From positions 1-64,000 of IMG/VR virus record IMGVR_UViG_3300047499_000102: a DNA stretch of 64,000 nt; one strand, 5' to 3'. Shown here in pieces: positions 740-33,043 of the stretch (its first letter is position 1; every line of letters begins with the position of its first letter). Below the pieces are notes generated by a model. The model was not told where the DNA came from and searched no databases. It worked only from the letters and a program-made list of their open reading frames with translations. Made by a program: the position numbers and the translations under genes. This DNA comes from a virus.

Positions 740-2715
740 GTGACCGCCACCGACACGGGCGACACGTTCGAGCCGCGCGTCCCGCATCACGTGGGAGGCG
801 ACGACGTGAAGACCTTCTGCAACGATGGCGCGACGCACGAGCCGTTCACGCTCGCCGAGTTGCGCGAGCACAACGCCGAAGACGAGGAGCTTCCCACGTG
901 GGAGCGCGACCTCGACCAGCTGCCCGTGGGTGGCACGTACCACATCGGAATCGGCGGGGGCTGGACCGGGGTCGAGTCGTGAGCGCGTACAATCGGGACG
1001 AGCATCGCATCGACGTGCTACGAGAGGTCGCCCGCCTGCTCGGGTACGAGGGCAAAGTGATCGCCTTCTGGCCATGCTCGACATGGGACCCGGACTTCGT
1101 CGCCTGCCTGCGCGAGCACTACACGCAGCCGCGGGGCGCCGCCGGGGAAGAAGCGCGCGTGGCGCGTCATCGATCACGGCGTGCACCGCGGCTACGAATG
1201 GGCGAACCTCACCGGCCGATACGATGACGTAATGGACTACTTTGCGCGTCTTGCCACAAGCGATTCCGACGACGAGTCGATCGACGAGGCCGAGCTCTGC
1301 TCGACGATCGGAAACGACGTGTGGAACGACTGGTGCGCGGGCGAGCGTGCGCCGGAGGCGGCATGATGTACCGTGTGAAGAGCTTCGAGACTGGGGAGAT
1401 CCTCGAGGGGCCGCCGAGCCTCGATCTGATCGACGCGTGCAAGCGACGCGCGCAGCCCGCCTATCGCGACGGGGGCGGGGTGTGGCAGCACGTGCCTCCC
1501 GAGCAGCAGCAGCGCGAGATGGAGGCGGGGCGCGACGTGATGCCCGTCGAGATCGTCGAGGTGGGCACGTGAACCGCGTCGAGAAGCAGATCGCCGCCCT
1601 CGCCCTCGTGGCGCGGCCCGTGCTCGAGGGCATCGGCTACCAGTCCAACTGCTGCGTCCTCGCCTCGCGCGCCGCGCTCGACGTCCTCAAGGGGTGGGAC
1701 ATCAAGGCGCGCCCGCTGCTCTGCGAGGTCGTCGCCGCGAACTTCGCATTCCGCTCGGGCGGCCGCGATCCCGTCACCGCCTACGTCGTGCAGTGCGACG
1801 CGGGGATCGACATCAAGCCGGGCGAACGCGAGATGCGCGAGAAGGCCGGGGGGCTCAACGGCCACGTGGTGCTCGCGGCGAAGGTCGGGCGCCGCCACAT
1901 GCTGCTCGACATGAGCGCGTGGGGCTTCTCGCGGCCTACGCGCGACATCCACATCCCCTCGGGGGTCGTGTTCGACAGCCGCGGGCCGATCATCACACCG
2001 AAGTGGCAACTCTCTGTCGATCTCAAGGGCATGGGCTGCATGTTGTATCGCAGTCACCCCGCGCCCGAGCGCGAGCGCTTCCAGTCGGCCAGCGACTGGA
2101 CGCTGCCTACCGACAAGCATCAGGAGATGCATCGCGGCACCGTCGCGGCGCTGAGGCAGTACGCCGAGGAGACGGTCAAGGTCGCGGTGTTCGAATGAGC
2201 GCCAAGTCCGACGAGCGATGGTTCGCGCAGCGCTTCCCGAGCGGAGGCGCGCGCGAGGCGGCCGACCGCGCCGTCGACGCGATCGACGTGCGGGAGCCGA
2301 TGGCGACGTTCATCGACGCGTGGGTGCGCGCATACAAGGCCGCCGGGGGCATCGTGCTCGGGTGGCGCGAATGACCGCCGCCGAGACGCGGGCCGAGCTT
2401 CTGCGGCTGCTCGGGGGCACCGAGGTGTGCGTGAGCGGCTCGGTCGTCTATCGAGTCATCGAGGTGTTCCACGGGGCCACGCGTCTGCGGCGCATGGTCG
2501 GCCTCGTGGGCACCGAGAAGGAAGCCCTCACCTTCGTGCTCGACCAGTTGCGGCGCGCGCGCGGGCTGGAGCGGACGCAGTCGCCCTGGTGCTACGCCTG
2601 CCCGAAGCGCCGCGGCGTGCAGCGTCACCGGTCCGTGCGCGATGGGCTCTGCGCGCTGCACATCGCGCGCCGCGATCGCGCCCGCCGCGAGGCCTCGGCG
2701 AGGGCGTCGTCGTGA
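740..2715 (+). CDS. Run of small, translationally coupled early phage genes (740-982, 979-~1366 with a frame break, 1363-1572, 1569-2198, 2195-2374, 2371-2715)
   Basis: ATGA/GTGA overlaps and high GC3 codon usage; no recognisable family. Confidence 0.6.
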
Positions 2716-2962
2716 TCGCGCAGACCGCCTTCGGCTTCGCGGCCCCGCCCGCACCCGCCACGCTGCCCCCGCGCGCGCCGCGCCGCGTGCCCATGTTCTT
2801 CATGGGCACGCACATGCCGTCGTGGCTCGCGAAGCTGGACGTGCCGCTCTTCGTCTCGCGACGTCGGCTCTTCGAGATGAAGACGTTGCCGCGCGCGAAG
2901 GGGATCTGGGCGCTCGACTCGGGCGCGTTCACCGAGTTGCTGGCCTACCGCGGCTGGAGCTT
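2712..2962 (+). pseudogene. N-terminal fragment of a DpdA/TGT-like DNA 7-deazaguanine insertase
   Basis: FFMGTHMPSWL..LDVPLFVSRRRL...LPRA...WALDSGAFTEL..YRGW, then an abrupt loss of homology. Confidence 0.7.
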
Positions 2963-3134
2963 CGGTGCGACCAGGGGCACCAGCTCCCGACCGTTCCCGA
3001 GCCGTTCGCCTCGCGCTGCGCGCTTGCCCTGGCTTTTCCGGGGAACCGCCACGATCGCGCGGGAGTGCGACATGGACACGCACCCGAGCACTGAACATAG
3101 GAATGGAAAAGCCCATCGACAGCAGGCAAAGATA

Positions 3135-3170
3135 TTGCGCCCCGGGTGGGGTGCGTTATTGTGTATCTCG
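3135..3170 (+). promoter_or_regulatory. Putative sigma70-like early promoter
   Basis: TTGCGC...TATTGT..TATCTC just before ATG 3173; a similar TTGCGC...TATCTC occurs at 26905-26938. Confidence 0.45.
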
Positions 3171-3172
3171 TG

Positions 3173-3370
3173 ATGACGACCACGACGAATCGCGCGACGC
3201 TCGAAGCGAAGCTCGCGAAGAAGTGCGCGAAGCTGTACGACGCGCGCACGTCGCAAGCGACTCGCCGCGCGCTGTCGCTCGAAGTCTCTTTCCTGCGCGC
3301 TCGCCTCTCGGGGCAGCGCGACATGCTCGACACGATGACGCGCGCGAGCGCAAACACTGAGGAGTGCTGA
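3173..3370 (+). CDS. Small hypothetical protein
   Basis: ORF directly after the promoter-like motif. Confidence 0.55.
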   Translation: MTTTTNRATLEAKLAKKCAKLYDARTSQATRRALSLEVSFLRARLSGQRDMLDTMTRASANTEEC

Positions 3371-3585
3371 CCATGATCTCGATGACCGCCGAGAAGCTTG
3401 CCAAGAGCCTGTTCGCTGATGACATGGGCCGCGCCGATGAGCTCCCCGTCGAGCGCGACGGGGAGCGGGCCTATGATGGCTGGGTCCGAGCCGCTGGTGA
3501 GGCGGGCGACAGGGAGACGGCGACGGCCCTGGCGGGTGTCGATCGCTCCGAGTTCGCCGCCGCGTGGGATGCGCTCGTCGAGGTG

Positions 3586-3630
3586 CACTGCACTGAGGCA
3601 CTACGGAGTTTCCGAGGGCGCTGAGTGGCT
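3586..3630 (-). pseudogene. Motif X snippet of a C5 cytosine methyltransferase
   Basis: LSALGNSVVPQC matches the typical R-L-x-A-L-G-N-A-V-V-P-Q C-terminal motif. Confidence 0.55.
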
Positions 3631-3781
3631 CGGCATCGCGCGCGGTATCAGCGTCGTCTGCCCCGTACGCCTCGACGGTGTGACCGGGGTACCACTGCGT
3701 GAGCCGCGCCTCGACGAGCGCGCAGAATGACTCCCGGTCCTCCTGGGTGGGCTCGCCGTCGCCCCAGCCCTGCAGCGTACC

Positions 3782-3983
3782 ACCCGCAAGCGCTTCGCCG
3801 GGCGCCTGGAGGATCGCGGCGTGTTCCTGCGACGGCGCTTTTGCGATCGGACCTGCTCCAGCCTCGGCAACAACGCGCCTGAGAACGTCGAGACTCTCTG
3901 CAACTCGTGCCATCAGCAGTGGTGGCACTGGGACCACGGAACCCGCCGGCTGCGCCGGCGCCACACATCGAAAGGAATCTGAC
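3782..3983 (+). pseudogene. HNH endonuclease remnant with an internal deletion
   Basis: Frame not in the ORF track: TRKRFAGRLEDRGVFLRRRFCDRTCSSLGN|NAPENVETLCNSCH..WH; the HH-x-D catalytic segment is absent. Confidence 0.6.
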
Positions 3984-3984
3984 C

Positions 3985-4206
3985 ATGCCCCGACCGAGCA
4001 CCGACTCCGAGCAGCTGAACGTGCGCCTCCCTCGCGAGGCCATCGCGCAGGCCGACGATCTGATCCCGCACGCGGGCCAGATGATGGGGCTCATCAAGCC
4101 CACGCGGGCCGACGTGCTGCGCAGCGCCATCATGCGCGGGTTGCGCGAGATGCAGCTGGAGCGCGCCGCGGCGGCAGGGGGACGGCGCCGAAAGACCGGA
4201 TCTTGA
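3985..4206 (+). CDS. Ribbon-helix-helix DNA-binding protein
   Basis: QLNVRLPREAIAQAD...TRADVLRSAI; RBS AAGGA upstream. Confidence 0.7.
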   Translation: MPRPSTDSEQLNVRLPREAIAQADDLIPHAGQMMGLIKPTRADVLRSAIMRGLREMQLERAAAAGGRRRKTGS

Positions 4207-4370
4207 GACCGGGGCCGATCGGGTATGGCTGCTTCCGCGTGCCGGCGCCCTTCGGGGATCGCGCGGCCGGCGCGCTGCATCTCTGGCGCGTGAACGTCGC
4301 GTGGCAGGTGATGCGCGGCTGGTACGACGAAGGGTGGCTCTCGCTCGCCACCGTGATGAGGGTCGCCTGA

Positions 4371-4781
4371 ATGCCGATCGTCGTTCTCGTCTGCCCTCGA
4401 GGCCACTGGTTCGAATCCGTCGGATCCGTCGGTGGTCGCCACCCGTCCACGGGTCGCGTCGTCGTGACGAACGCCGCCAACCGTCGCATCCTCGCCGCGA
4501 TCGCGAGCGCCAACGCCACCGAGCAGCCGGTCAAGATGGGGGTGTCCGTCGAGGACGCCTCTCGCTACGGTTGGCCGGGCGAGAAACTCTTGCCGAAGTC
4601 GGTCAGCGATCGCGTGTTCACGGCGATCTCGAACCTGCGCAAGCTCGGGCTCCGAGGCGTGCTGACGCGCCGCGAGGACGGCTACGTGCTCGAGGCCGAT
4701 CGCGTCACGCTGGACTCGTGCTGCGCCGAGCTCGGGCCTCACGATCGGTGCCCCCTGGTGCCGCGCGAGGACGAGCCGTGA
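4371..4781 (+). CDS. Stand-alone winged-helix domain of the myxobacterial regulator type
   Basis: RRILAAI...GWPGEKLLPKSVSDRVFTAISNLRKLGLRGVL.RREDGYVL. Confidence 0.65.
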   Translation: MPIVVLVCPRGHWFESVGSVGGRHPSTGRVVVTNAANRRILAAIASANATEQPVKMGVSVEDASRYGWPGEKLLPKSVSDRVFTAISNLRKLGLRGVLTRREDGYVLEADRVTLDSCCAELGPHDRCPLVPREDEP

Positions 4782-5047
4782 CGGGGCGTCCACGCCTGAA
4801 GCCCACGCGACCGCGCCCCGCCACGAAGCCGACGAGTGCCACCGAGAAGCGCAGCGCCGAGGCGGTGCGTCGCCTTCAGGGGCTGGAGAAGGGGCAGGAT
4901 CGTCCGCGCGTCTGCAACGCGAAGGGCTGCCAGCACGTCGAGGACCTGCGCCTGGGGCCCTTCAAGAGCCCCGCGGGGGTCGACTGTCGGCGCTGCGGAA
5001 CGCGCGTCACCGAAGGCGTGGTCGTGCTGGTCGGCTTTCGGCGCTGA
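4778..5047 (+). CDS. Small Zn-ribbon protein
   Basis: CxxxxC...CxxC. Confidence 0.5.
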   Translation: MTGRPRLKPTRPRPATKPTSATEKRSAEAVRRLQGLEKGQDRPRVCNAKGCQHVEDLRLGPFKSPAGVDCRRCGTRVTEGVVVLVGFRR

Positions 5048-20479: not shown

Positions 20480-21993
20480 GCCACGGTCACAAGGTCACTC
20501 GAATCGCCATCACGAACTACCGGGGCGTCCGCGCGCTCGACGCGAAGATCGGCCCGGGCGGCGCGGTCATCAAGGGGCGCAACGGGGGAGGCAAGACCTC
20601 GGTCCTGCGTGCCATCCGCGCCGCCCTGGCCGCGCAGGACATCAGCCCCGACGCCATCACGATCGGCGAGGAACGCGCCGAGATCCTCATCGACGTCGAC
20701 GACGTGAGCGTCCAGCGGGTCATCACCCCGAAGACCACGACGGTGAAGGCCAGCCGCGGAGGGATGTTCGCCGCCAAGCCGCAGACGTTCCTCAACGAGC
20801 TCCTCGGCAACGCCGCCATCGACCCGCTCGATCTGTTCCTGAAGAAGGACAAGGAGCGCCGGGCGGTCATCCTCGAGGCGCTGCCGGTGAGCGTGAGCGC
20901 CGCGCAGCTGCAGAAGTGGGCGCCCGTGCCGGACGACGTGGACACGAGCGGCCACGGGCTCGTCGTGCTCTCGCGCGTGCGGAAGGTCTTCTACGACCAG
21001 CGCACCGACGCCAACCGGGTGAAGGACGAGGCGGAGCGCGAGGTCGCGCGCATCAGCGCCATCCTCGCGAAGATGCCTGCGACGACGGGGCCCGATCTGC
21101 CCGACGCCGAGGCGGAGCTCGACGCCGCCCGCGCCGCCGCCGCGGGGCTCCATCAGCAGGAGGTCGACGCGGAGGCGACCGAAAAGAGGCAGGCGAGCGC
21201 CCGCGCCTCGCTTGAGGGGCTCAAGGCCGAGGCGGCAAAGGCGCGCGCCGACGCGGTCGCGATCGCGAAGATCGCCGAGGAGCAGGCGAAGCGGGAGGCG
21301 TTCGACGCCAAACGCGCCGAGGCCGAGCAGCTGGCGAAGAAGCTCGCCGAAGTGCGCCGGGAGATGCAGGCGCTGGGCAGCGAGTTGGACGCGCTCGTGG
21401 ACGTGAACGACACGGCCGCGCGGCTCGTGGCGGACGCCGAGACGAAGGAGCGGTCGGCCGCCAGCATCGAACAGACGCTCAACGCCACGGTCGCCCGCGT
21501 GACCCCCGAGCAGGTGGCCCAGATCGGCGCCCGCGTCGGGGCCGCGAAGGCTGCCGTGGACGAGGCGAAGGCCAGAGCGCAGCGCGCCGAAGTAGCCAGG
21601 CAACTCGACGAGGCGAAGGCGAAGGCCGCGCGCGCGACTGACGCGGCGCTCAACCTCGACCAGATCGTGAAGCGCCTCACCGACGATGCGCCCGTCGCGC
21701 TCGTCGCGGCCGCCAACGGCATCCCCGGGCTCGTGCTCGACGACGACAAGATCCTCCTCGACGGGGTCGACATCGACAAGCTCTCTGGAGCCGGCCAGAT
21801 GCAGTTCGCGGTGACCGTGGCCAAGCGCCTCAACGCCAAGAGCAAGATGCTGGTCGTGGATGGCATGGAGCGCCTGGACGAAGACAACATCCAGAGCTTC
21901 ATCAAGCTGGCGACCGCCGACGGGTGGCAGCTTTTGGCCACTCGCGTGGCATCCGGTGAGGTCGTGATCGAAGCCATCGAAGCCTCGCCGTGA
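20476..21993 (+). CDS. SMC/SbcC-like ABC ATPase with a long coiled coil
   Basis: Walker A GRNGGGKTS, signature LSGAGQ, Walker B LVVDGMERLD. Confidence 0.88.
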   Translation: MSHGHKVTRIAITNYRGVRALDAKIGPGGAVIKGRNGGGKTSVLRAIRAALAAQDISPDAITIGEERAEILIDVDDVSVQRVITPKTTTVKASRGGMFAAKPQTFLNELLGNAAIDPLDLFLKKDKERRAVILEALPVSVSAAQLQKWAPVPDDVDTSGHGLVVLSRVRKVFYDQRTDANRVKDEAEREVARISAILAKMPATTGPDLPDAEAELDAARAAAAGLHQQEVDAEATEKRQASARASLEGLKAEAAKARADAVAIAKIAEEQAKREAFDAKRAEAEQLAKKLAEVRREMQALGSELDALVDVNDTAARLVADAETKERSAASIEQTLNATVARVTPEQVAQIGARVGAAKAAVDEAKARAQRAEVARQLDEAKAKAARATDAALNLDQIVKRLTDDAPVALVAAANGIPGLVLDDDKILLDGVDIDKLSGAGQMQFAVTVAKRLNAKSKMLVVDGMERLDEDNIQSFIKLATADGWQLLATRVASGEVVIEAIEASP

Positions 21994-22070
21994 TGCTACT
22001 CTCGGGCGAACGAAGCCCCCGCGACCTTGCCGGGTCCGGGGGCCTGACCGAACGCCCGAAGGAGGCGCCG

Positions 22071-22358
22071 ATGCCGAGAGTGTACACGAGGCTGCCGCTG
22101 GCGGACCGCTTCCGCCGATACGTGAACGTCGACGGGCCCATCGTGCGACCCGCGCTCGGTCCGTGCCATCTATGGACCGGAGCGTTCGCCTCTGGCTACG
22201 GGACCATGGGCGTCGGCTCGCGCAGCGACGGGACACGACGCATGGTGGGCGCGCACGTGGTCGCGTTCTTCATCGCCGAGGGGCGCTGGCCGGATGCGCT
22301 CGTGGACGAGTGGATCGCCATCGTGAACGAGGCGGCGGACCTGCGAGGTGTGCCGTGA
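22071..22358 (+). pseudogene. N-terminal half of an HNH_3 homing endonuclease fused to unrelated sequence
   Basis: RFRRYV...GPCHLWTGA..SGYG...AHVVAF...GRWP, with no H-x-C-D...C.NP.HL; a hairpin leader at 22003-22066 covers the RBS region. Confidence 0.65.
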
Positions 22359-22816
22359 TGGACACGGTCGTCATCCAGACCGCGGGCACCGGACGCATCG
22401 TGATCGCCGGTGGTCCGCGGTGTGGGAAGACCACGCTCTCGCGCCGCATCGCTGCGATCATGGGGCTCGACCTGCTGGCCGTGCGCCACACCGACGACCT
22501 CGTCGGCGTGCTGGAGTGGTCAGAGGCATCGGCGCAGGTCGCCGAGTGGCTGGAGGCCCCGGGTCCATTCATCTGCGAGGGCGTGGCGGTCCCGCGAGCG
22601 CTGCGCAAGTGGCTCGCCGCGCACGACACCGGGGCTCCGTGCGACGTCCTGCTCTACCTGACCGAGCCCTTCGAGACGCTACTGAAGGGGCAGGCCGCGA
22701 TGGCAAAGGGCTGCCGCACCGTGTTCGACGAGATCGAGCCAGAACTACGAGCGCGCGGCGTTGAGATCGCGATGGGCGCGGCGCCTTCGCTTGCTCCAAC
22801 ACCTGTGAAGCAGTAG
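22358..22816 (+). CDS. P-loop kinase/NTPase
   Basis: IVIAGGPRCGKTTLS, HTDDL, FICEGV. Confidence 0.75.
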   Translation: MDTVVIQTAGTGRIVIAGGPRCGKTTLSRRIAAIMGLDLLAVRHTDDLVGVLEWSEASAQVAEWLEAPGPFICEGVAVPRALRKWLAAHDTGAPCDVLLYLTEPFETLLKGQAAMAKGCRTVFDEIEPELRARGVEIAMGAAPSLAPTPVKQ

Positions 22817-22843
22817 GTTACCGCGCATGCGTAGCGCATGCGC
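22791..22843 (+). promoter_or_regulatory. Promoter TTGCTC-N17-TAGGTT followed by the operator GCGCATGCG-TAG-CGCATGCGC
   Basis: Exact 17-bp spacing; perfect palindrome 22823-22843; AGGAGG RBS downstream. Confidence 0.7.
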
Positions 22844-22863
22844 ACGACACAAGGAGGACGACC

Positions 22864-24150
22864 GTGGCACGAACAGGTACGAAGCCGGCGACTGAGCCGG
22901 ACGACAACGAGCCGATCGAGGGGGAGTTCGACAACGACCAGCCGGGCGGAGGCGCCGCCGTTGGCGCGCTCGCGACGGTGCGCGGCGGCGCGATGAAGAC
23001 GCAGACGAGCTACCACACCGCCATCGCGGTGCAGAAGCCGCGGTCGATGGCGATCTTCACCGCGAAGGTGGTCGAGGAGGCCGCGCTCTGCGGCGAGGAC
23101 TTCTACTTCGGATGGAAGCAGGGCGGGCAGCAGATCGAGGGCGTCACCATCGGCGGCGCGATGGTCATGCTCCGGCACTACGGCAATTGCGCCCTGGAAC
23201 TCGATCTGGTCGAGGAGGGGCCGAGCCACTGGATCTTCAAGGCGACCTTCATCGACTTGGAGAGCGGCATGTCCCTGCCGCGCCTCTTCCGGCAGCGCAA
23301 GGGCGAGAGTCACCAGAAGTCGGGCGGGGACGCCGAGCGCAACCTCGACATCGCCTTCCAGATCGCCCAGTCGAAGTGCTCTCGCAACGTGGTCCTTCGC
23401 GCGATGCCCGAGTGGCTCGTAAAGAAGGCGCTGGCGGCGGCCAAGGCAGCCGAGGTCGACGGACTGGCGAAGAAGCTGCCCGCGGCGATCGCCAAGAGCA
23501 AGGAGCTTTTCGAGAAGATGGGCGTCAAGCTCATCGACCTCGAGCGCTTCCTCGGGAGCGAAGACGGCAACCTGCCGGCGGCGAAGCCCGAGGCCACGTG
23601 GACGGCCAACGACACGCGCATCCTCGGCGCTCTCTACCGCGGCATCATCGCGCGCGAGACGAGCGTGCCGAAGTCGTTCCCGTGGACCGTCACCGAGAAG
23701 CAGGCGCCGACCGGGGAGGTGCCGCCCGCAGCTGGCGACGCCCCGCCGGCCTCGAAGCCCGAGCCGACGCCCACCGCCACGGCCGAGCAGGCGACGCCGA
23801 AGGTCGCCTGCGTCGTGTGCGGAAAGGAAGTCGGCCCCGCCGATGCCGTCTACACGGGCCAGGGGATGGCGTTCCGGCACGGGGGCTGCCCCATGCCTGC
23901 GGCCGCGATCGCCCAGACGCCCGCAGCAACGCCCGGCGCGCCCCCCGCGTCGACACCCCAGCCCACGCCGACGCCCGCAGCGCAGCCCGGCGCAGCGCCC
24001 GCGCATGGGGCCCAGGCCTCCCTCCCGGGGACACCCTCGGCGGCCGAGCCCCCGAAGGGCAAGGACCGCCGCCGACGGACCGAGGAGGGGCTCGAAGAGC
24101 CGCCCGAGGACCTGAAGCTCGCCGGGGACGAAGACCGCCCCATCAAGTAG
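22864..24150 (+). CDS. Putative single-strand annealing/recombination protein with a Pro/Ala-rich tail
   Basis: FYFGW..GGQQIEGVTIG.A..LRHYGN...SKCSRNVVL.AMP; lies between the ATPase and the exonuclease. Confidence 0.5.
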   Translation: MARTGTKPATEPDDNEPIEGEFDNDQPGGGAAVGALATVRGGAMKTQTSYHTAIAVQKPRSMAIFTAKVVEEAALCGEDFYFGWKQGGQQIEGVTIGGAMVMLRHYGNCALELDLVEEGPSHWIFKATFIDLESGMSLPRLFRQRKGESHQKSGGDAERNLDIAFQIAQSKCSRNVVLRAMPEWLVKKALAAAKAAEVDGLAKKLPAAIAKSKELFEKMGVKLIDLERFLGSEDGNLPAAKPEATWTANDTRILGALYRGIIARETSVPKSFPWTVTEKQAPTGEVPPAAGDAPPASKPEPTPTATAEQATPKVACVVCGKEVGPADAVYTGQGMAFRHGGCPMPAAAIAQTPAATPGAPPASTPQPTPTPAAQPGAAPAHGAQASLPGTPSAAEPPKGKDRRRRTEEGLEEPPEDLKLAGDEDRPIK

Positions 24151-24966
24151 GGCGCACCGCGTCATGTCTACGCCCGCCGAGCGACTACCAGTCGCTCCCC
24201 CATGCCCAGGGGGGGGGGGCGCTGGCGCTGGAGCTGCATCCCCCGGAAGGACCGGCCGCTGACCGAGCGTCAGCGGTTCGTCCTTCGAGGCCAAGGGCGC
24301 CATCATCCGAGAGGGGCACGGTCACATCCGCATCCCCGGGGTACGTTGGCAGATGGTCCGCATCGAAGAAGGAGCGAAGTCTGATGAGCAACGACGACTC
24401 GACGAAGAAGGCGCTGGAGGCGATCGCTGACGCCGCGGAGACGATGGCGAAGGAGCACGAGCACGGCACGTCCGGCGGCTGCGTCATCGGGCAGATCGCC
24501 TCGGGGCTCGGCGCCGCGGCGAGGCGACGCGCGGCCAGCTGCGCGAGCGGGCCCGCCCAGGTGGCGACCGAGAGGTATCGCACGACGTGGGAGCAGACCT
24601 TCGGCGGGCGCAAGGCCGTTCGGGGTGAAGCGTGATGGGCACACGAGCCGAGGAGATGAACGAGGCGGCCGCCCGCGCCGTGGACGCCATCAAGCGAGAC
24701 CTGGGTGGCGAGGACCTGCGCTTCGTCGTCATCGTGACCAACCCGGGCCGCGATTGGGTCGGCATGAGCAGCAACGCGGACCTTGTCGACGTGAGAGCCA
24801 TTCTCGTCGCCGCGACGAAGGCCGCCGAGTGTGAGCCGTTGCCCACGCGCATCGTTCACAAGATCGCCGACGTGAAGAGCCGGACCGCCAAGTGTGGCGT
24901 CTTCCTGTTCGTCAGCGAGCGGCGTACCACGGTCGACGCGCAGGTCACGTGCCCGGGGTGCAGGTC

Positions 24967-26283
24967 GTGACCTTCCGCATCCCCAGCAGCTCGTCTCTAC
25001 CCCTCGTCCATCAGTGCGGCGCGTCCTTCGCCATCCCGCACGGCGGCCGCGGTGGTAGCTCTCGCTCGCGCATGGGCGACGCCCTGCACGAGCACATGGA
25101 CACGCGCGCGAAGTACGGCGTGGGCGAGGCCATGCTGCTCTGCGACCAGATCGCCAAGCGCCACGAGCTGACGCCCCGCGAGACGTCGATCTTTCTCGCC
25201 CGGTGCAAGCACTTCGAGTGGAGCCCCCCCAGAGGCTCCTTCGGCGAGGTCGCGCTCGTGCTCCTCGAGGACGGCACCGTCGAGCGCATGATCGGTGGCA
25301 AGGGCTCCTACACCTGGCCGGCGAACGCCGTCACGGGCGGCACGCTCGACCTGATGTGGAGCGAGCCCGAGCCGCTCGACCTGTCCGACCCGGAGCACCC
25401 ACGCTGCCCGCCAGGGTCCGTGCTATGGGTGCCCGACGTGAAGAGCGGAGAGGAGACGTACGTCGAGCCGGTCGAGCACAACTTCCAGATCCTCACCAAC
25501 GCGCTGCTCGCCGCCCGCTGGACCGGAGCTCGACGCGTTGCCCCGGGCGTCCTCTTCTGGCGCAAGGGCATGGGCGAGTGGGACCTGCCGCTCACCGACG
25601 ACGGCAAGCTCCTGCCCTGGGGCGAGGCCGACATGCGACGGCACGAGCGGCAGGTACGCGCCGACATGGACAACGTCCGCGAGCAGCAGCGCAAGGCGCT
25701 CGCCGGCGAGCCGCTCGACATGGTCGATGGGCCCTGGTGCGAGTGGTGCCCGGCGCGCGCGCGCTGCAGCGTGCACACCGCCCAGCTCAAGATGCTGGCG
25801 ACCGGCGAGATGGCCAAGGTCGGCGACGCCCCCCTCACCGAGCAGGAGCGCACGTGGGTCGCCGACCGCCTGGGCGCCTTCGAGCGCGTCGGCAAGGCCC
25901 TGCGCGACGTGCTGCGCGCCGACGTCGAGGCCAGCGGCCGCGCCATCATTATGAGCAATGGAAATGTCTGGGGGCCATACGACAAGCCCACCAAGAGCAT
26001 CCTCGTCGAGCAGGCGCTGCCCATCCTGCAGGAGGAGCTCGGCGAGCACGCCGCCGAGGTCGTGCAGCGGTCGATCTCGAAGGAGTCGATCGAGGACGTC
26101 GTTCGCGCGATGCACCAGGAGCAGGGCGTGAAGAAGCAACTCGGCTCCACCGTGCGTCGCATCTTCGCCAAGTTCGGCGAGGCCGGCGCGCTGCTCGAGG
26201 AGCCCAAGACCGTCTTCGGCGCGCACAAGCCGAGGGTGGACACCGTCGTGCACGATCCGAACATCGAGGACCTCGACGAATGA
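24967..26283 (+). CDS. Cas4/RecB-like PD-(D/E)XK exonuclease
   Basis: S.S.L..C...G..LHE, GTLDL, VPDVKSG, Q, CEWCPARARC. Confidence 0.8.
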   Translation: MTFRIPSSSSLPLVHQCGASFAIPHGGRGGSSRSRMGDALHEHMDTRAKYGVGEAMLLCDQIAKRHELTPRETSIFLARCKHFEWSPPRGSFGEVALVLLEDGTVERMIGGKGSYTWPANAVTGGTLDLMWSEPEPLDLSDPEHPRCPPGSVLWVPDVKSGEETYVEPVEHNFQILTNALLAARWTGARRVAPGVLFWRKGMGEWDLPLTDDGKLLPWGEADMRRHERQVRADMDNVREQQRKALAGEPLDMVDGPWCEWCPARARCSVHTAQLKMLATGEMAKVGDAPLTEQERTWVADRLGAFERVGKALRDVLRADVEASGRAIIMSNGNVWGPYDKPTKSILVEQALPILQEELGEHAAEVVQRSISKESIEDVVRAMHQEQGVKKQLGSTVRRIFAKFGEAGALLEEPKTVFGAHKPRVDTVVHDPNIEDLDE

Positions 26284-26879
26284 GCAAGTCGCACACCGCG
26301 AAGGAAGCATCTGGGGCGGAGATGAAGTCGGTGCTGCGTAAGCTCGGCATCCTGGCCGAGGCGATCGGGCAGCGACCGCTGACCGTTCCGACCGACGACG
26401 GCGAAGGCGTTGCGCTGGAGACCACCGTGGCCGTGCTCGCCCAGGCGATGTCGCTCATCGAGCGCCAGTACCACACGATCCACAAGGGCCCCCGCTTCGT
26501 GAAGCTCGAGGCGATACCAGACTCCGGCGGTCGACCGGGAGAGTTGTACGCCCTCGACGACCGCGGACGCGTCTTCGTCCACGCCTGCAACTGCGAGTTC
26601 GGCGACATCACGCCGTGGGCGCGCAAGGCGTCCGAGGAACTCGCACGCGTCCAGGCCGACCACGCGCGGCGCAACCGACACGACTGGCGCGTCCTGCTCC
26701 TCACGCCGGCGGCCGTCAGCACCGAGTGGTTTTCCGACTACGTGCACGGGCACGCGCTCGTGATGCCGCTGTCGCCGCGGGTGACCTTCGTGGGGCACGA
26801 GCACGCCTTCCCCAAGGATCTCAGCTTGTCCATTTACGGCGAGGCGCCAGGCTTCGCACCCTGGCGCTGGAAATCGTGA
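26280..26879 (+). pseudogene. Chimeric ORF: hypothetical N-terminus plus the C-terminal half of a phage N6-adenine methyltransferase
   Basis: CNCEFGDITPWARKA...VLLLTPAAVSTEWF..YV......LSPRVTFVG....FPKD; the SAM-binding motif I is missing. Confidence 0.6.
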
Positions 26880-26972
26880 GTCGTGCGAAACGACGAAAAC
26901 GAACTTGCGCTGTGGCCACGCTGGTGCATCACTATCTCTGTCAGCGCGTAAGCTGACGAGGAGGATGGGACG

Positions 26973-28161
26973 ATGCATATGCACATCACGATGGCAGCGG
27001 CGGTGGCCGCGTACCGGGCCGGCAACGATCGCGGCGAGGGTTACGCGCCGTACACCGACGAGGACGAGTCCCTGGTGTCCGCGCTGCTCGGCCGTCTCCA
27101 GGCAGCCGATCACCCGGCGTGGGGCGACGATTGGAGCGAGTGGCTGGACGCGACGGCCGAGCCGATCGCCCGTGAGCTGGTGCTGCCGTGAGCGCCACCG
27201 TCGACACCACCCAGATCCGCTGGAGCGACGACGAGGCCCACGCACTCGACGTCGGCGCCGTCAGACTCGCAGGATTGCTCGGCCGCCCGTGCACTCGGGT
27301 CGAGTTGATAAAATTGCTCGTGCGCGCATGGGCCGCGGAGATGAGGCCGGAATCGATGGTCGAGGGAAAGATGGAGAATGGGAAATGACTCACCCGTGGA
27401 GGCAACGAGCAACGCGACGGAAATGCGTCACGCCGGGGTGTGGGCGCTCGGCAGCTGAGGGGCGCGAACACTGCGTGCTGTGTCGTGTTGCGGACCCTAC
27501 GACCGCTGTCTGCACTCGCGGCGCAGACCTGGCCGAGCAGCGCCGGAGGAAGACGTGAGCCGCTCAGGCCCCAACATCCGCGACGGCGAGCGCAAGCGCC
27601 CGCCCGTCCGCATCACCCTCTCGCGGGAGACAATCGACCGGCTGGACGAGATCGCCAGGGCGCGCGGGACGACGCGATCCGGCGCCGTAGAGCAGCTCGT
27701 GCGCAACGCGCGATTGGGCGAGCGGTAGATCGATGACGACCTACTTGCTGAGCGACGGAAACAGTGAAGAGTACATCCAAGCGGCGGATCTCGCGGATGC
27801 GCGCCGCCAAGCGGAAGCCTGGGTGCGCGCCGGCGACTGGAACGAACCCGAAGAAACGATTTGGATCCGCGTGGTGATCAGCCAGGACGGCGAGCACGCC
27901 GACTCGGTGACGGTGGCGATCGATCCGACGGAGCCCGCATGCTCTAACTACGAGGATCACGACTGGCGATCGCCTTACGCGCTCCTCGTCTGGGGTCACG
28001 GCGGCGGCGGCGTCGTCATCCACGAAGTGTGCGTGCAGTGCGGCTGCAAGCGCACCACGGACACGTGGGCGCAAGATCGCAGCACGGGCGAGCAGGGACT
28101 GACGTCGGTCAGCTACCAGCCCAAGGCGTACTCGGCGGACGAGATCGGCAGGGCGCTGTGA
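26973..28161 (+). CDS. Small early genes, including an RHH protein (27555-27728) and 27733-28161
   Basis: GAGGAGG RBS at ~26962; VRITLSRETIDRLDEIA..RGTTRSGAVEQLV. Confidence 0.6.
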
Positions 28162-28390
28162 GCGCAGAGGACACGCGTCGCTGGCGTCTGGCCAACCCGG
28201 AGCGAGCGAAGGAGCAGGCGCGCCGCGCCACGGCTCGCTATCGGCAGGCTCACCCGGAGCGGGCAGCGGCAAGTATAGCCGCATGGAAAGCCCATAACCG
28301 CGAGCTGGTGCGTGCGGCTGAGCGCAGGTATCAACGTCGGCATCCCGAAAAGCAACGAGAGAAGCTCTGGCGTCGCGCTTTACGTGTCTA
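28158..28390 (+). pseudogene. Basic N-terminal repeat region typical of EndoVII/HNH nucleases, truncated
   Basis: W..ANPE / Y..AHPE repeats ending LRVY, with no CxxC nuclease domain following. Confidence 0.45.
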
Positions 28391-28694
28391 CGCTTCGCGC
28401 GGCGCCCTCTGGGGCTGCATCGATCCGCGCAGTCGCTGGGCGATAAGCGCGGCAAGGCCTGCAAGGGCGGTGACGTCGTGAGCCGCGCCGTGGTTCGCAC
28501 CAAGGCATCCTTCAAGGCGCTCGTGGAGGCCAAGCTCGAGGAGCTGGGCAGCAGGCGCTCGCCTGTACCGATCGACGTCCCTGCGGGGCAAGAGTTTCCG
28601 GGGCCGTGTGTCCTGTGCGGCAAGCAGACGGAGGAGGAAGAGAACGCGGAGCACTTGGAGAGCATCCGGCGACGATGGGGAGGGGCAGCCGTCG

Positions 28695-28751
28695 ATGCTC
28701 GCGGAGACGTGGGACGCGCGGGTGGACCCCAAAGGGTGGCTCATCAGCGAA
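28695..28751 (+). pseudogene. ATP-dependent DNA ligase N-terminal snippet
   Basis: MLAETWDARVDPKGWLISE ends just before the KxDG adenylation motif. Confidence 0.6.
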
Positions 28752-28887
28752 GCCTCCGGCTGGCCCTCTTCGGAGGGCCGTCGAAGCCTGCGCCTCGCCA
28801 GGGAAAGCACCGTTATTTCCTTTCCGGCAAGAGCCCCGCGCTGGGGCGCAGACTTCGGCGGGAGCCGACAACGAAAGGGAGGCGAAG
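28752..28887 (+). ncRNA. Highly structured RNA, resembling the non-coding (bridge-RNA-like) end of an IS110 element
   Basis: Nested stems: GCCTCC/GGAGGC, CGGCT/AGCCG, GGCCCTC-TTCG-GAGGGCC, and a 17-bp stem GTCGAAGCCTGCGCCTC/GGGGCGCAGACTTCGGC; the RBS is sequestered before ATG 28888. Confidence 0.45.
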
Positions 28888-29373
28888 ATGGATAAAAAAG
28901 CGTTTCACTGGGGCCGTCAGCGTCGCCAGCGTGGCCGGCAAACCGATCACGATCGGTGACGCTCACGCTGACTACCCCGGAGCCCATCACTGCGCTGTCG
29001 CGTAGAGCCGTCGCGCAGATGACCCCCGCCCTCGCTCGCGGCCTCGCCCAGCTGCTCAACGCAGCGGCCGACCGCGCGGAGGCGCTCTGATGGGCACCGT
29101 CACCCGCTCCGCCGTCATCGCCGTGCTGCGAACGGTTCGCGACGGTCAGCGCCCGCCGTGCGACACCGTGCCGCAGATCGACGCCATCACGGCCGCCATC
29201 GGCATGGGCTGGCTCGAGACCGACGACGGGGAGAAGCACCTGCGCAGGTGGCGCCTGGAGCTCACCGACGAGGGGCGCAAGCAGGCGGGGCCGGTGCTAC
29301 GGTTGATCGCTGGGGGGCGGGGATGATGCTGACACCCGTGCGCCCGTCATTTTCGGAACGTGAAAGGACAACC

Positions 29374-30603
29374 ATGAGGATTGCAGCAGACGAGCTGAAG
29401 ACCATGCTGGAGCAGCACAAGCTCTGGAGAGATAGCGGTGGGGATCGTGGCGCACGCGCGAACCTCGCACGCGCGGACCTCGCAGGCGCGGACCTCGCAC
29501 GCGCGGACCTCGCACGCGCGGACCTCGCAGACGCGTACCTCGCAGGCGCGGACCTCGCAGGCGCGGACCTCGCAGGCGCGGACCTCGCAGGCGCGAACCT
29601 CGCAGACGCGAACCTCGCAGACGCGTACCTCGCAGGCGCGGACCTCGCAGACGCGAACCTCGCAGGCGCGAACCTCGCAGACGCGTACCTCGCAGACGCG
29701 TACCTCGCAGGCGCGAACCTCGCAGGCGCGGACCTCGCAGGCGCGAACCTCGCAGGCGCGGACCTCGCAGGCGCGGACCTCGCACGCGCGGACCTCGCAG
29801 GCGCGGACCTCGCAGGCGCGGACCTCGCAGGCGCGGACCTCGCACGCGCGGACCTCGCACGCGCGGACCTCGCACGCGCGGACCTCGCACGCGCGGACCT
29901 CGCAGGCGCGAACCTCGCAGACGCGGACCTCGCAGACGCGTACCTCGCAGGCGCGAACCTCGCAGACGCGAACCTCGCAGGCGCGAACCTCGCAGACGCG
30001 GACCTCGCAGACGCGTACCTCGCACGCGCGGACCTCGCAGGCGCGTACCTCGCAGGCGCGAACCTCGCAGGCGCGAACCTCGCAGACGCGGACCTCGCAG
30101 ACGCGTACCTCGCAGACGCGAACCTCGCACGCGCGAACCTCGCAGACGCGTACCTCGCAGACGCGTACCTCGCAGGCGCGAGAAACAGGCCCGCGTCGCT
30201 GGCCGACCACAAAGATCCCGAGACGCCATATGTGCGATCGGGGCGAGCGACGACTCCCGAGGCGCGACGGGCAGAACGCCTGGCCTCAGCGCAGCGGTAT
30301 CGCGAGCATCATCCCAAGGTGCCCGTTGTGGAGCGACTGGACGCGAAGATCCTCGACGCCGTATCTCTGCCTGGCAACGCGCTCAACATGGGCGACTGGC
30401 ACACGTGCGAGACGACACACTGCCGAGGTGGCTGGGCGGTGCATCTGGCGGGTGAGGCCGGGTACGCGCTGGAGGCCGAGTTGGGCTCCGCTGAGTCGGC
30501 AGCGCGAGCCATCTACCGCGCGAGCACCGGACGTGCGCCGCACTTCTACGCGACCAACGAGCGGGCACTGGAGGACATCAGGCGGTGTGCGGCAGAGCAC
30601 TGA
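29374..30603 (+). CDS. Pentapeptide-repeat protein with a C-terminal Cys/His domain
   Basis: A(D/N/Y)LA(G/D/R) x48; [14 protein letters not shown]. Confidence 0.92.
29458..30177 (+). repeat. 15-bp tandem repeat x48 (GCG[G/A/T]ACCTCGCA[GG/GA/CG]C)
   Basis: Directly visible; encodes the pentapeptides. Confidence 0.95.
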
Positions 30604-30638
30604 CACCCATGCGCCCGAGCAAGTAGGAGGCAACCGAG

Positions 30639-31247
30639 ATGAGCGATCGAATGCTGAAGGTCAAGGCGTGCGAGCACACGAGCCGCACTCTGGTGTTCTC
30701 GTCGGGCGAGGACGCCCCCGGTAAGTCGCTGGACACCTGCGAGCAGTGCAACACGTGTGGGGCGGTGATCCACGACTACCGCCACGGGGGCGGACTGCGC
30801 TCCCCGAACTACCCGATCGTGCGCGAGTCGCCGCTACTCAAGCCGTTCCTCGCGGTGTGCCAACAACTCATCGAGGCTGAGCGCGCCCTGGCCGGTCGAG
30901 GAATGTCGCTCACGCCGGACCTCGACATGATCCGACTCGCGAAGGAGAACGAGCGGCTTCGTCTGGACCTGGACGTGGCCGAGTCACGCAAGTCCGACGT
31001 CATCCGTCGGCTCGTCGAGGACGGCGACCGGATGCGATTGGTCCTGCACGATCTGGCGTTCGCGGCGCCGCACGTACTCGACGAGCACCGCGACCAGCGG
31101 GGGTGGCTGGGGCCGGCTGCGTGGGGCAAGTACGTCGCGCGCGTGCAGAAGATGGCGGGCGGCGCCATCCGGCGCCCACCAACGGACCTGGTCGCGAGCG
31201 AGGCACCTCCGCTGCGCCCGATCCGCGACGAGGAACCGGAGACCTGA
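30639..31247 (+). CDS. Hypothetical protein(s)
   Basis: AGGAGG RBS; ORF may be a fusion of two genes. Confidence 0.5.
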   Translation: MSDRMLKVKACEHTSRTLVFSSGEDAPGKSLDTCEQCNTCGAVIHDYRHGGGLRSPNYPIVRESPLLKPFLAVCQQLIEAERALAGRGMSLTPDLDMIRLAKENERLRLDLDVAESRKSDVIRRLVEDGDRMRLVLHDLAFAAPHVLDEHRDQRGWLGPAAWGKYVARVQKMAGGAIRRPPTDLVASEAPPLRPIRDEEPET

Positions 31248-31293
31248 CGAGATGCGGACCTTCATCAGATCTCCAGCGCGGAAACCCCGTCCT

Positions 31294-31465
31294 TTAGGGC
31301 GGGGAGGAAGCGCTGTCTCCGCGCTGCGCCTCCACGTAGCGTTTGACAATCTCCAGCGGCGCGCCGCCGCACGACATGGCGCAGTAGCTCGGGCTCCAGA
31401 AGTGCGGACCCCACAACTTGCGCTCCACCTCCGGGCAGATCCGCGGTCGGTGCGCACGCAGCATC
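31294..31465 (-). pseudogene. tnpA: TnpA (Y1 HUH transposase) C-terminal fragment
   Basis: KLWGPHFWSPSYCAMSCGGAPLEIVKRYVEAQ. Confidence 0.85.
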
Positions 31466-31574
31466 GCGACACTGACGAACCACTGGTCGCCGTCGCGCTT
31501 GAGGGAGCAGGTCTTCGGCTTCCCTTCGAGCGGACGGTGCATCACCGTGCGGAGCGTGCCGAGCTTCGGGAAGC
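31466..31574 (-). pseudogene. tnpB: Inverted internal TnpB fragment
   Basis: FPKLGTLRTVMHRPLEGKPKTCSLKRDGDQWFVSV. Confidence 0.8.
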
Positions 31575-31743
31575 GGAACACGCAATCCAACCCGTTTCCT
31601 GTTTCGCAGGGTGCCCAACTTCGGCGAGCCCTCCACAGGCAGTCGATGAACGACTTGCTCGCGGCCGCGGACGTGAAGATCCGCGAGCTCGAGAGCCAGA
31701 AGAAGAGCCTCGAAGCCGAGAACATCACCCTGAGGAACCGTCC

Positions 31744-32373
31744 ATGACCACCACGCCCGAGCACACCATCAAGGCCCTCTGCGAACGCTCCCACGCCATC
31801 TCCCTCGAGAAGGGCTGGGTCAGCGCGGAAGGTGACCCGCGCTCCTTCGCGTCCATCGCCTCGCTCAATCACAGCGAGCTGTCCGAGGCCTTCGAGGAGT
31901 ACCGCAACAACAAGCCGCTGAACGAGATCTGGTACGAGATCGAGACGGTAGGCGAGGGCGGCATCTGGTGCAAGACGTACGCCTCGCAGCTCAAGGAAGA
32001 TGCCGACCTCTCGAGGTGCAAGCCCTGCGGCATCCCCATCGAGCTCGCCGACTTCGTCATCCGCGTGGCCCAGCACGTGGGTACCTCCGGCAAGTCGGCC
32101 GCGCTCGAAGAGCTCTTCAACGAGCGCATCGGCGATGAGCACTACGCCGACTTCGACACCCTCATCGCCGAGGCCCACCTGGCGGTCGCGCTGGCCTACT
32201 CGTCGAAGACGATGGGGGAGGGGGACACGGCGTACCTCGCGCACCTCACCGACGCCCTCAGGGAGGTCTTCGCATTCTGCAAGGGCAAGGGCATCGACCT
32301 GTGGGCCGCCATCGACCAGAAGGAGGCCTACAACCGCACGCGTCCCACGAGGCATGGAGGCAAGAAGGTCTGA
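31744..32373 (+). CDS. MazG-like nucleotide pyrophosphohydrolase
   Basis: EKGW...LNHSELSEAFEEYR...KPCGIPIELADFVIR...IDL..AI..K..YN.TRP.RHGGK. Confidence 0.8.
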   Translation: MTTTPEHTIKALCERSHAISLEKGWVSAEGDPRSFASIASLNHSELSEAFEEYRNNKPLNEIWYEIETVGEGGIWCKTYASQLKEDADLSRCKPCGIPIELADFVIRVAQHVGTSGKSAALEELFNERIGDEHYADFDTLIAEAHLAVALAYSSKTMGEGDTAYLAHLTDALREVFAFCKGKGIDLWAAIDQKEAYNRTRPTRHGGKKV

Positions 32374-32375
32374 TG

Positions 32376-32578
32376 AAGAGCGCATCCACGGCGACATCTT
32401 CATCGACGATAAGTACGAGCACGTTCGCAGTTGGTTCGACTACTGGCTCAGCCAGAACAACGACTACGTCATCCCGGTGCTCTGGCAAACCGACCGCACG
32501 ATCAACACCGAGGTGGTGGATGGCGTAACCGTGGCCACCAACTGGAACCAGGTGGTCCAGCTGGTACACAACCAGTCG
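32376..32578 (+). pseudogene. C-terminal fragment of a HAD 5'(3')-deoxyribonucleotidase (NT5C-like)
   Basis: IHGDIFIDDK...V..W...N...NW.QV; the N-terminal DxD motif is absent. Confidence 0.55.
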
Positions 32579-32579
32579 T

Positions 32580-32756
32580 TGCACAGCGTGTGGCTACCAA
32601 GATCACGCTGACCTCAATGCTGCGAAGATTCTTTTTGCGCGTGCGAATCGCCCGGGACTGCCTGTGGAGGGCTCGCCGAAGTTGGGCACCCTGCGAAACA
32701 GGAAACGGGTTGGATTGCGTGTTCCACGTCGTCCTCTCGAAAGCTCCGCCCTTTAG
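32580..32756 (+). pseudogene. tnpB: TnpB C-terminal fragment overlapping the omega-RNA scaffold
   Basis: CTACGYQDHADLNAAKI (Zn finger plus RuvC-III). Confidence 0.85.
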
Positions 32757-32790
32757 GGCGGGGTTGATTACGCGACGTCTGCGGCTCGCC
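32650..32790 (+). ncRNA. TnpB omega-RNA scaffold plus flank-derived guide
   Basis: GCCTGTGGAG...GAAACAGGAA...right-end hairpin...TTAC, then a guide starting GCGACGTCTG. Confidence 0.7.
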
Positions 32791-32824
32791 GCACTCATCT
32801 GGTGGGGAGGGCGACCTCACCGCG

Positions 32825-33043
32825 TACCGCGACCCCAAGGTGTTCGCCGGGCACTCGCTGCGGGCTGGGTTCATCACGAGCGCGGCGAAGCGGGGCGCCT
32901 CGCTGCCGAAGATCATGCGGCAGTCGCGGCACAAGAGCGAGCGGATGGCGATGACGTACATCCGGCCAGCGACGCTGTTCGACGACAACGCGGCCGATGG
33001 GATGGGCGACGATGAGGACGAAGATGAGGACGAAGATGGCTGA
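32825..33043 (+). pseudogene. C-terminal fragment of a Cre-like tyrosine recombinase
   Basis: FAGHSLRAGFITSAA..GA....IMRQSRHKS......YIR...LF.DNAA. Confidence 0.85.

Follow-up and report, generated by a model that had tools for sequence, protein, structure and literature searches.

The route by which phage genomes become mosaic has long been debated, with homology-free joining set against relaxed homologous recombination, and selection usually removes failed recombinants, so that junctions can rarely be read directly. In T4-type phages modular shuffling is mediated by mobile regulatory cassettes, the promoter-early stem-loops. Decayed or non-autonomous members of the IS200/IS605 family of insertion sequences (IS), such as palindrome-associated derivatives of the IS608/ISDra2 family, retain subterminal hairpins at both ends while the interior genes are lost. 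The mosaic model of Hendrix and Hatfull, in the form in which Morris et al. (2008) on mycobacteriophage Giles is cited in PMC8136500, describes near-random joins with little or no homology and imports from unrelated phages, with survivors found mainly where function is undisturbed; illegitimate recombination is one proposed route of phage gene flow (PMC8136500). Free-standing phage HNH genes undergo progressive degeneration within a cyclic model of gain and loss, with cases of decay in the Xanthomonas oryzae phages Xop411, Xp10 and OP1, in T5 (hegG and hegJ) and in T4 (mobA) (PMC2248197). Here the accessory arms of the genome of an uncultivated phage from moss metagenomes, IMG/VR record IMGVR_UViG_3300047499_000102, are compared with these systems; the arms carry truncated enzyme genes that end at abrupt junctions.

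The window, meaning the whole stretch of 64,000 nucleotides (nt) that was analysed, is the first 64 kb of a linear record of 98,010 bp that CheckV estimates to be 95% complete. Its arms contain remnants of enzyme genes, several of which have surviving near-identical parents; three junctions are placed to the base, and the joins of the right arm are reproduced in another sample. Twelve enzyme pieces had been named in the original prediction, seven of which are real and truncated (DpdA, HNH_3-type, Dam, NT5C, TnpA, TnpB and integrase) and five of which are weak or unsupported. The accompanying claim that most pieces lack their catalytic motif holds for the DpdA, Dam, NT5C, HNH and integrase pieces, all of which are without catalytic parts. 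We consider that the arms are high-turnover accessory DNA, produced by illegitimate recombination, imports from co-occurring phages and the decay of selfish elements (probability about 0.7). A special microhomology-driven process behind the remnants is not supported. A truncation was counted only if it was bounded by the limits of the open reading frame (ORF) and by homologues; partial profile coverage was dropped as a criterion, since intact tail proteins also match PHROG profiles only partly. The remnants and the segments that accompany them are as follows.

2793 to 2962, plus strand: remnant of DpdA, the 7-deazaguanine DNA transglycosylase (PF23859 positions 5-63 of 291, 56 bits)
3866 to 3919, plus strand: possible HNH motif piece (...NVETLCNSCH...), a weak match to PF01844 positions 26-43 of 47
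21990 to 22358, plus strand: ORF with the N-terminus of an HNH_3-type homing endonuclease, about 70 residues at 22089-22295 (phrog_826, E 7e-9)
26280 to 26879, plus strand: chimeric ORF of 199 aa, with the C-terminal half of a phage Dam methyltransferase at 26586-26876
31266 to 32771, plus strand: IS200/IS605 shell, with a left-end hairpin at 31286-31304 and a right-end hairpin at 32745-32763
31324 to 31437, minus strand: C-terminal remnant of TnpA, a Y1/HUH transposase (PF01797 positions 84-121 of 121, 39.5-41 bits)
31474 to 31577, minus strand: TnpB, residues about 136-171 (phrog_506, E 1.4e-4)
31575 to 31644, no strand assigned: left arm of a perfect 70-bp inverted repeat, partner at 32656-32725
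31644 to 32577, plus strand: imported segment of 0.93 kb, 99% identical to the phages L031 (171 kb) and L032 (137 kb)
32579 to 32730, plus strand: C-terminal remnant of TnpB (...SRCTACGYQDHADLNAAK...; PF07282 positions 27-58 of 60, E 7e-6)
32837 to 32971, plus strand: C-terminal remnant of a tyrosine recombinase within the ORF 32768-33043 (phrog_1, E 6e-7)

The DpdA remnant keeps the native start and about 57 of about 250 codons. By tblastn, the DpdA of mycobacteriophage LindNT and 38 metagenomic DpdAs (235-267 aa) match 2793-2969 through their residues 2 to 60 or so only, and the remnant is thus without the complete TIM-barrel domain (about 250-290 residues, with the C-terminal catalytic Asp and the zinc site). 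Past this point the frame continues as an Arg/Ser/Pro-rich, out-of-context tail to a stop at 3173; the tail is without a match among 5.8 billion proteins and its composition is non-coding. No further DpdA piece was found in any frame of the 98-kb record. The breakpoint at 2962|2963 is the first base of a repeat shared with the far arm of the genome, which is followed by two more shared patches.

2963 to 3153, no strand assigned: 191-bp repeat, 100% identical to genome positions 90818-91008 (self-blastn with base-by-base extension)
3323 to 3390, no strand assigned: patch shared with the far arm, matching 91010-91077 at 95.6%
3380 to 3438, no strand assigned: patch shared with the far arm, matching 87841-87899 in reverse complement at 100%

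The far copy of the 191-bp repeat is intergenic, beside a full HNH gene and outside the window. A 169-bp indel (3154-3322) lies between the repeat and the patches, and the two patches are joined with an overlap of 2 nt (CG). This arrangement is like that of the T4-type cassettes in that short near-identical intergenic repeats flank accessory cassettes, one of them marking the DpdA breakpoint, and in that a hairpin (3136-3155) stands at the end of the repeat. It is unlike them in that no sigma-70-type promoter was found in the 191-bp repeat, in that there are three copies only, and in that the join between DpdA and the repeat does not fall at the repeat end.

The far copies belong to a second accessory region of low coding density at 82.8-92.9 kb (L049), outside the window, which has gaps of 300-600 bp and patches of 60-191 bp in common with window positions 2963-3438. 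It contains an ASCH-DUF932-HNH cassette between 128-bp inverted repeats (87715-87842 and 90756-90883, 97.7%). Should the genome be circular or circularly permuted, this region probably runs on directly into the left arm.

HNH pieces had been proposed at 22071 and at 3782. The first holds as an HNH_3 N-terminus (22089-22295) that is 50-59% identical to L010 (164 aa, PF13392 at residues 56-98) and to L039. The similarity ends at ...GRWPD, just ahead of HxCDN..HL..N, and a stop follows 20 codons on; L010 and L039 go on into the HxCDN..C..P.HL..G....N motif, which the window ORF is without, and there is no Pfam HNH_3 match. At its tail the ORF shares an ATGA overlap with the gene that follows. The 153-aa ORF that follows the stump (22355-22816) shows only a P-loop N-terminus (AAA_18/AAA_28 profile positions 1-37); it may encode a small kinase or be a further gene that has been shortened. 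The second piece (3866-3919) is weak, with E values of 0.0017 in the genome search and 0.013 in the ORF scan, and 0.0095 against phrog_144, and is without the upstream catalytic His. Intact HNH paralogues are found in the same genome at 84557-85078, a full-length paralogue of the truncated gene within the region at 82.8-92.9 kb, and at 90322-90765. The coexistence of an HNH gene devoid of its catalytic domain with intact paralogues is like the homing-endonuclease cycle, as is the presence of an intact HNH gene elsewhere in the relative L010. It is unlike that cycle in that a single clean truncation is fused to the tail of a neighbour, in place of gradual point mutations.

The N6 methyltransferase that had been recognised at 26580 is the C-terminal half of a phage Dam protein in a chimeric frame. 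Residues 103-199 of the chimera are 98% identical to residues 72-168 of P0167 (168 aa, PF05869), while residues 1-102 are without a known relative and are unrelated to P0167 residues 1-71. The chimera covers only positions 66-128 of 169 of PF05869, with 14 bits, under the cut-off of 28.1 bits. The breakpoint falls directly ahead of CNCEF, the site of motif IV, (N/D)PP(Y/F). The N-terminal S-adenosylmethionine (AdoMet)-binding region of phage Dam (...TP..…DLAA…) is missing. The motif IV site itself reads NCEF in both the chimera and P0167, NPEY in P0168 and NPPF in L010, whose Dam also carries DYRTPPEF. A variant of the chimera that is 98% identical, P0166, is present on another contig. P0167, a full-length member of the family, has CNCEF where its relatives carry NPEY or NPPF, and this substitution suggests that, truncation aside, catalysis in its lineage of methyltransferase may already be altered or lost.

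These two ORFs bear on a different view of the remnants, namely that several of the short forms are functional, for example as catalytically dead DNA-binding or decoy proteins against host defence, and are selected. The HNH-N stump and the Dam chimera each form an open frame with a usable start that is coupled in translation to adjacent genes, the Dam chimera persists in two variants, and the CNCEF of full-length P0167 in place of NPPY hints at a non-catalytic lineage. Against this stand the unmatched, non-coding tail of the DpdA stump, and the shortness of the TIM-barrel piece (57 residues) and of the integrase end (56 residues), neither of which would be likely to fold. On balance selection for such functions is an unlikely explanation of the remnants, and the NT5C stump described below also speaks against it.

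The right-hand remnants are gathered in and beside the IS200/IS605 shell. Its end sequences match those of intact copies in L033 and L034 at 84-92% identity, its ends carry subterminal imperfect hairpins, and the right end bears TTGATTAC; the interior is rearranged and mostly replaced. Four pieces of the element can be recognised at 84-96% DNA identity to the intact copies in L033, L034 and L035. In the intact relatives (L033 and L035) the genes for TnpA (155 aa) and TnpB (405 aa) lie in divergent orientation. In the window the TnpA remnant keeps the Tyr region and is missing the HUH motif, and it is fused in frame to the TnpB piece at 31474-31577, which has 90-91% DNA identity to the tnpB genes of L033 and L035 and the opposite orientation. 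The left arm of the inverted repeat (31575-31644) is an inverted TnpB tail, residues 372-395, whereas the right arm (32656-32725) is the 3' end of tnpB in its natural place, close within the element's right end. The C-terminal TnpB remnant, in the canonical orientation, holds the second half of the zinc ribbon, the RuvC-III Asp and the tail (residues about 346-405 of 405); it is read out of frame by an 85-aa ORF (32354-32611), and the DNA of 32579-32772 is 88% identical to L033. An intact TnpB with WED domain, RuvC I-III and zinc ribbon is absent, and PF01385 gave no match. The shell is like other decayed members of the family in having hairpins at both ends, in the loss of its interior genes and in the divergent arrangement of TnpA and TnpB in its intact copies, and is unlike them in that the interior holds inverted pieces of tnpB, a perfect 70-bp inverted repeat and foreign MazG-NT5C DNA.

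Several further observations concern the shell. An Rfam search of 31.0-33.1 kb gave no omega-RNA or other family above threshold; the left-end hairpin (31211-31308) has a weak match to the HgcC family RNA (19 bits, E 0.16), which comes through a CCCCG.CCUUUAGGGCGGGGAGGA hairpin in common. In intact copies of TnpB (L033:2524-3741) the peptide PKLGTLR occurs at two places, around residue 139 and, within the tail, around residue 385, with the underlying DNA about 80% identical over 20 nt (compare window positions 31560 and 32680), and the tail copy lies at the expected position of the guide RNA scaffold. The idea that excision of the element would restore the frame of the integrase was rejected, as the upstream frame is an off-frame of an unrelated 198-aa gene without integrase similarity.

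The integrase remnant itself comprises the HxxR and catalytic Tyr region, approximately the last 56 of about 360 residues, and aligns to residues 311-366 of the L038 integrase. Against PF00589 it covers positions 125-169 of 172 with 19.5-21 bits (cut-off 27.1; E 4e-5 to 3e-4), and it is without the full catalytic domain (R..HxxR..Y) and the N-terminal core-binding domain. The acidic (D/E) repeat that ends this ORF has a 12-nt deletion polymorphism at 33011 in a contig of run X3.

Between the TnpB pieces lies the imported segment, which is 99% identical to the unrelated IMG/VR phages L031 and L032 in two blocks, window positions 31644-32378 and 32378-32577. It carries three coding parts: the 3'-terminal 37 codons of an ORF of 81 codons (31646-31747), a MazG-like pyrophosphatase gene that is intact (31744-32373; phrog_9236 match 6-191 of 191) and the C-terminal 68 codons of NT5C (32379-32577). 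As the import starts inside the 81-codon gene and stops two codons short of the NT5C stop, its ends ignore gene borders. In both phages the MazG gene is followed by a parent NT5C of 171 aa (PF06941, 42 bits in L031, motif LLDVDG). Relative to L031 and L032, a 304-bp deletion at 32378 has removed NT5C residues 3-101, including LLDVDG, and shifted the frame, so that motif I, DxDG(T), with its nucleophilic Asp is missing from the stump. The 85-aa ORF over the stump starts at an accidental ATG in the end of mazG and then runs out of frame into tnpB, which is the point that tells against a selected function here; its homologues are 143-264 aa long and match at their C-termini. A 37.7-kb contig of run X7 ends in the MazG segment (31644-32378; 735 nt with 3 differences); its depth is about three times that of this phage's own contigs in that run, and it probably represents a donor-type large phage co-occurring in the moss.

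The structure of the shell could also be explained by one template-switching event, in which an inverted tnpB tail was copied before a jump to a co-infecting phage and a return. At least five breakpoints fall within 1.5 kb, the perfect 70-bp inverted duplication directly adjoins the imported DNA with overlaps of 1 nt, and the identity of the arms (100%) and of the import to its parent (99%) makes all of them recent. Such an event would, however, make neither the 304-bp NT5C deletion nor the TnpB-TnpA fusion necessary, the IS pieces are only 84-96% identical to known copies, so that their timing is not comparable, and an intermediate form is lacking; we think it improbable that this single event accounts for the shell. 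The 70-bp inverted repeat brackets the MazG-NT5C import, and homologous recombination between its arms would invert a segment of 1 kb; both orientations may exist. Since both end hairpins are intact, the shell could be a cargo element mobilised by TnpA supplied by the intact copies of co-occurring phages. The larger picture of a MazG cargo element moved in trans by TnpA, with an invertible segment between the 70-bp repeats and arms formed in a burst of template switching during co-infection, is speculative and rather unlikely.

Three junctions can be resolved to the base. The overlap is 1 nt where the inverted-repeat arm meets the import at 31644, 1 nt at the NT5C deletion (32378) and 2 nt at the join of the two patches (3380-3381). 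With IS proxies of only 84-91% identity, the join J3 (32577|32579) and the TnpB-TnpA fusion (about 31437-31474) cannot be placed this exactly. Across 200,000 joins made at random within this genome, overlaps averaged 0.8 nt, with 48% of joins at 1 nt or more and 20% at 2 nt or more. The observed overlaps are unremarkable against random joins, at a low power with n=3; overlaps clearly longer than chance, the scar of microhomology-mediated end joining or of annealing-dependent deletion, were not seen in these three.

These values bear on the mechanism that had been put forward, a highly active microhomology-mediated process of deletion and inversion in which an ATPase, an annealing protein and a Cas4-like nuclease encoded by the phage repair breaks that host nucleases introduce. 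An intact module of this kind, its annealing protein a predicted one, is present (20476 to 26283).

20476 to 21993, plus strand: AAA_23 ATPase (Pfam)
22864 to 24150, plus strand: putative Rad52-like annealing protein of 428 aa (structure comparison of an AlphaFold model)
24949 to 26283, plus strand: PD-(D/E)XK nuclease (Pfam)

A search of PDB profiles by sequence with the 428-aa protein found nothing. Its AlphaFold model has a mean pLDDT (predicted local distance difference test) of 71, and the best Foldseek matches are RAD52, Mgm101, Red-beta and RecT, with an E value of only 0.013. With VIA-align, RAD52 gives Z 8.0 over 136 residues (root mean squared deviation 4.3), and the top ten rows are RAD52, Mgm101 and Red-beta (Z 8.0-5.9). 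The label of annealase is reasonable for this predicted fold, though not proven, and the proposed grouping of ATPase, annealase and nuclease is plausible.

The module's presence, the inversions besides deletions in the IS shell and the overlap of at least 1 nt at all three resolved junctions are what this mechanism has in its favour. Random joins nevertheless give the same overlaps, the probability of all three being at least 1 nt being about 0.11. Annealing proteins of the Rad52/Red-beta type require far longer homology than 1-2 nt. No breakpoint is tied to a nuclease site or a CRISPR spacer, and the module is not linked to the junctions. The short duplications that had been cited at junctions, AACAAC (3869) and GCACTGCACTG (3585), are present as strings at a frequency expected by chance: of 3-mers the window has 2095 tandem pairs, and period-5 repeats of the GCACTGCACTG kind number 30 there compared with 34 in shuffled sequence. 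Much of the pattern has more specific causes, namely the decayed IS200/IS605 element, the 0.93-kb import and the far-end copies of intergenic repeats. The proposed microhomology mechanism is thus quite improbable. Ku, Mu Gam and QueC were not found in the 98-kb record.

As this is a metagenome assembly with perfect repeats of 70 and 191 bp, able to mislead assemblers, it must also be asked whether the fragments are chimeras of assembly or amplification. Logan contigs of run X3, from another moss sample, are identical to the window across five stretches within 19701-33399: 19701-22703 (the HNH stump), 23103-26771 (the Dam breakpoint), 30152-31604 (the IS left end, TnpA and the TnpB piece), 31615-32685 (the import, the NT5C deletion and the tnpB join) and 32696-33399 (the integrase end). 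Short joints with sides of 20-23 nt were ignored in this comparison as cross-matches from other organisms. The X3 contigs end at the 70-bp arms, as a repeat exceeding the assembly word in length would lead one to expect, and the orientation of the enclosed segment is therefore not independently fixed; only about 30 nt bridge the join at 31644. The independence of X3 is limited because the samples share one habitat and year. The Dam chimera occurs in addition as a 98% variant on a separate contig, the core genes are free of frameshifts, and the unique-to-repeat k-mers at 2962|2963 cannot be created by a repeat-induced mis-join. The right-arm junctions at HNH, Dam, NT5C and TnpB are reproduced in X3, and an origin of the fragments as chimeras is highly improbable.

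The contrast that had been drawn between accessory arms and core was upheld, the remnants with abrupt junctions being concentrated in regions that are not essential and the genes for replication, recombination and the tail being intact. Genes were called with a codon-score model trained on long ORFs, raw ORF lists being crowded with shadow frames because the GC content of the window is about 69%. The map is as follows.

1 to 5 kb, plus strand: block of genes
6.1 to 18.1 kb, minus strand: replication block with an SNF2 helicase and a DnaC-like protein
18.2 to 33 kb, plus strand: block of genes
from 33.3 kb, minus strand: late genes (baseplate hub, wedge and tape measure)

Coding density is 0.66 at 2.7-6.1 kb and 0.75 at 26.3-33.3 kb, compared with 0.93-0.95 in the replication, recombination and late regions, and the genes of the arms are shorter and have lower codon scores than those elsewhere. 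There are no frameshifts in core genes. Intragenomic repeats of at least 40 nt are confined to the arms, except for the internal repeats of the pentapeptide and tail genes. The ParA-like gene at 3-743 is truncated by the end of the contig and not by decay.

The four remaining enzyme calls have no support from Pfam or PHROGs. For the C5 methyltransferase (3586), EndoVII (28158), ligase (28695) and LexA (24240), ORF scans against both databases at these positions were empty, and six-frame searches of the whole 98-kb record with PF00145, PF02945, PF01068 and PF00717 at E values up to 10 gave nothing. The LexA-like signal was discarded: it amounts to a resemblance over nine residues, in 233 bp that have no coding potential. 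Within 28161-28956 (about 800 bp) the best coding frame switches every 100-200 bp and the ORFs have no family match; this is possibly older, unrecognisable debris. The 409-aa pentapeptide-repeat protein at 29374-30603 has long internal DNA repeats and 68-76% DNA identity to pentapeptide genes of Caulobacter and Ralstonia phages, a similarity that hints that the gene pool ranges over proteobacterial hosts.

Recovery of parental genes, the check that had been suggested, succeeded at 98-100% identity for MazG-NT5C, the Dam half and the 191-bp repeat; for most of the others only distant homologues were obtained. Megablast of GenBank phages with 2-22 kb and 20-34 kb gave no match, and distant blastn matched only the DpdA stub and the pentapeptide gene. 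Scans of IMG/VR with single proteins (the 428-aa protein, the DpdA ORF and the Dam chimera) did not find close relatives, and the profile scan yielded distant relatives only, at 28-44% identity, so that a DNA-level parental alignment of whole arms is impossible. Genome-contig scans with MazG and with P0167 found nothing, and a metagenome-contig scan with the PD-(D/E)XK nuclease found one relative at 40% identity.

The explanation that we prefer is as follows. The regions at 2.7-6.1 and 26.3-33.3 kb of the window and at 82.8-92.9 kb of the record would be dispensable and of high turnover. They would repeatedly have acquired selfish elements (HNH homing endonuclease genes, IS200/IS605 and integrase) and genes of DNA modification and nucleotide metabolism (DpdA, Dam and MazG-NT5C), with at least two of the acquisitions recent and from co-occurring phages, as suggested by 98-99% identity to other contigs. 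The acquired genes would then have been trimmed or overwritten, in part by copies of the phage's own intergenic repeats, through joins needing almost no homology (0-2 nt). N- and C-terminal stumps, out-of-frame tails and in-frame chimeras would be the outcome. Deletion end points would fall inside genes because the arms hold nothing essential, and the stumps would be free of selection. A limit of capsid size, under which each gain calls for a loss, would probably contribute. This order of events is the one that we infer from the present arrangement.

Several points weigh against this explanation. A close relative of the phage is lacking, and distant homologues (28-59% identity) are the basis for most of the parental states. 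Three base-resolved junctions are too few to exclude a modest bias to microhomology. HNH-N, with its ATGA overlap, and the 199-aa Dam chimera, with its two 98%-identical variants, are intact, translationally coupled ORFs, and some remnants may therefore be retained for function. The interior of the IS shell requires several events or one complex event, a simple deletion being insufficient, and the read check covered the junctions of the right arm only.

Taken as high-turnover accessory DNA, the arms probably represent the unfiltered product of illegitimate recombination expected under the mosaic model, together with a cycle of gain, decay and loss of HNH genes and IS elements. They resemble the model in their near-random joins with little or no homology and in imports from unrelated phages. 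They differ from it in that the junctions lie inside genes and not at their borders, in that many occur within a few kilobases, and in that near-identical parents survive for several of them. Because such parents still exist, the events are young and selection has yet to tidy them. The kind of process is already known; what stands out is the density of remnants and the survival of parents. For annotation, there is a warning that short accessory ORFs with partial family matches can be true stumps. Many young, presumably unselected junctions are found here, several with parents at 98-100% identity in the same habitat, which makes them readable to the base. The moss metagenome series holds both the phage and a donor phage, and could yield a spectrum of junctions. 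If the reading of the arms as a template-switching burst is true, they would provide a natural system for the study of phage recombination junctions at base resolution.

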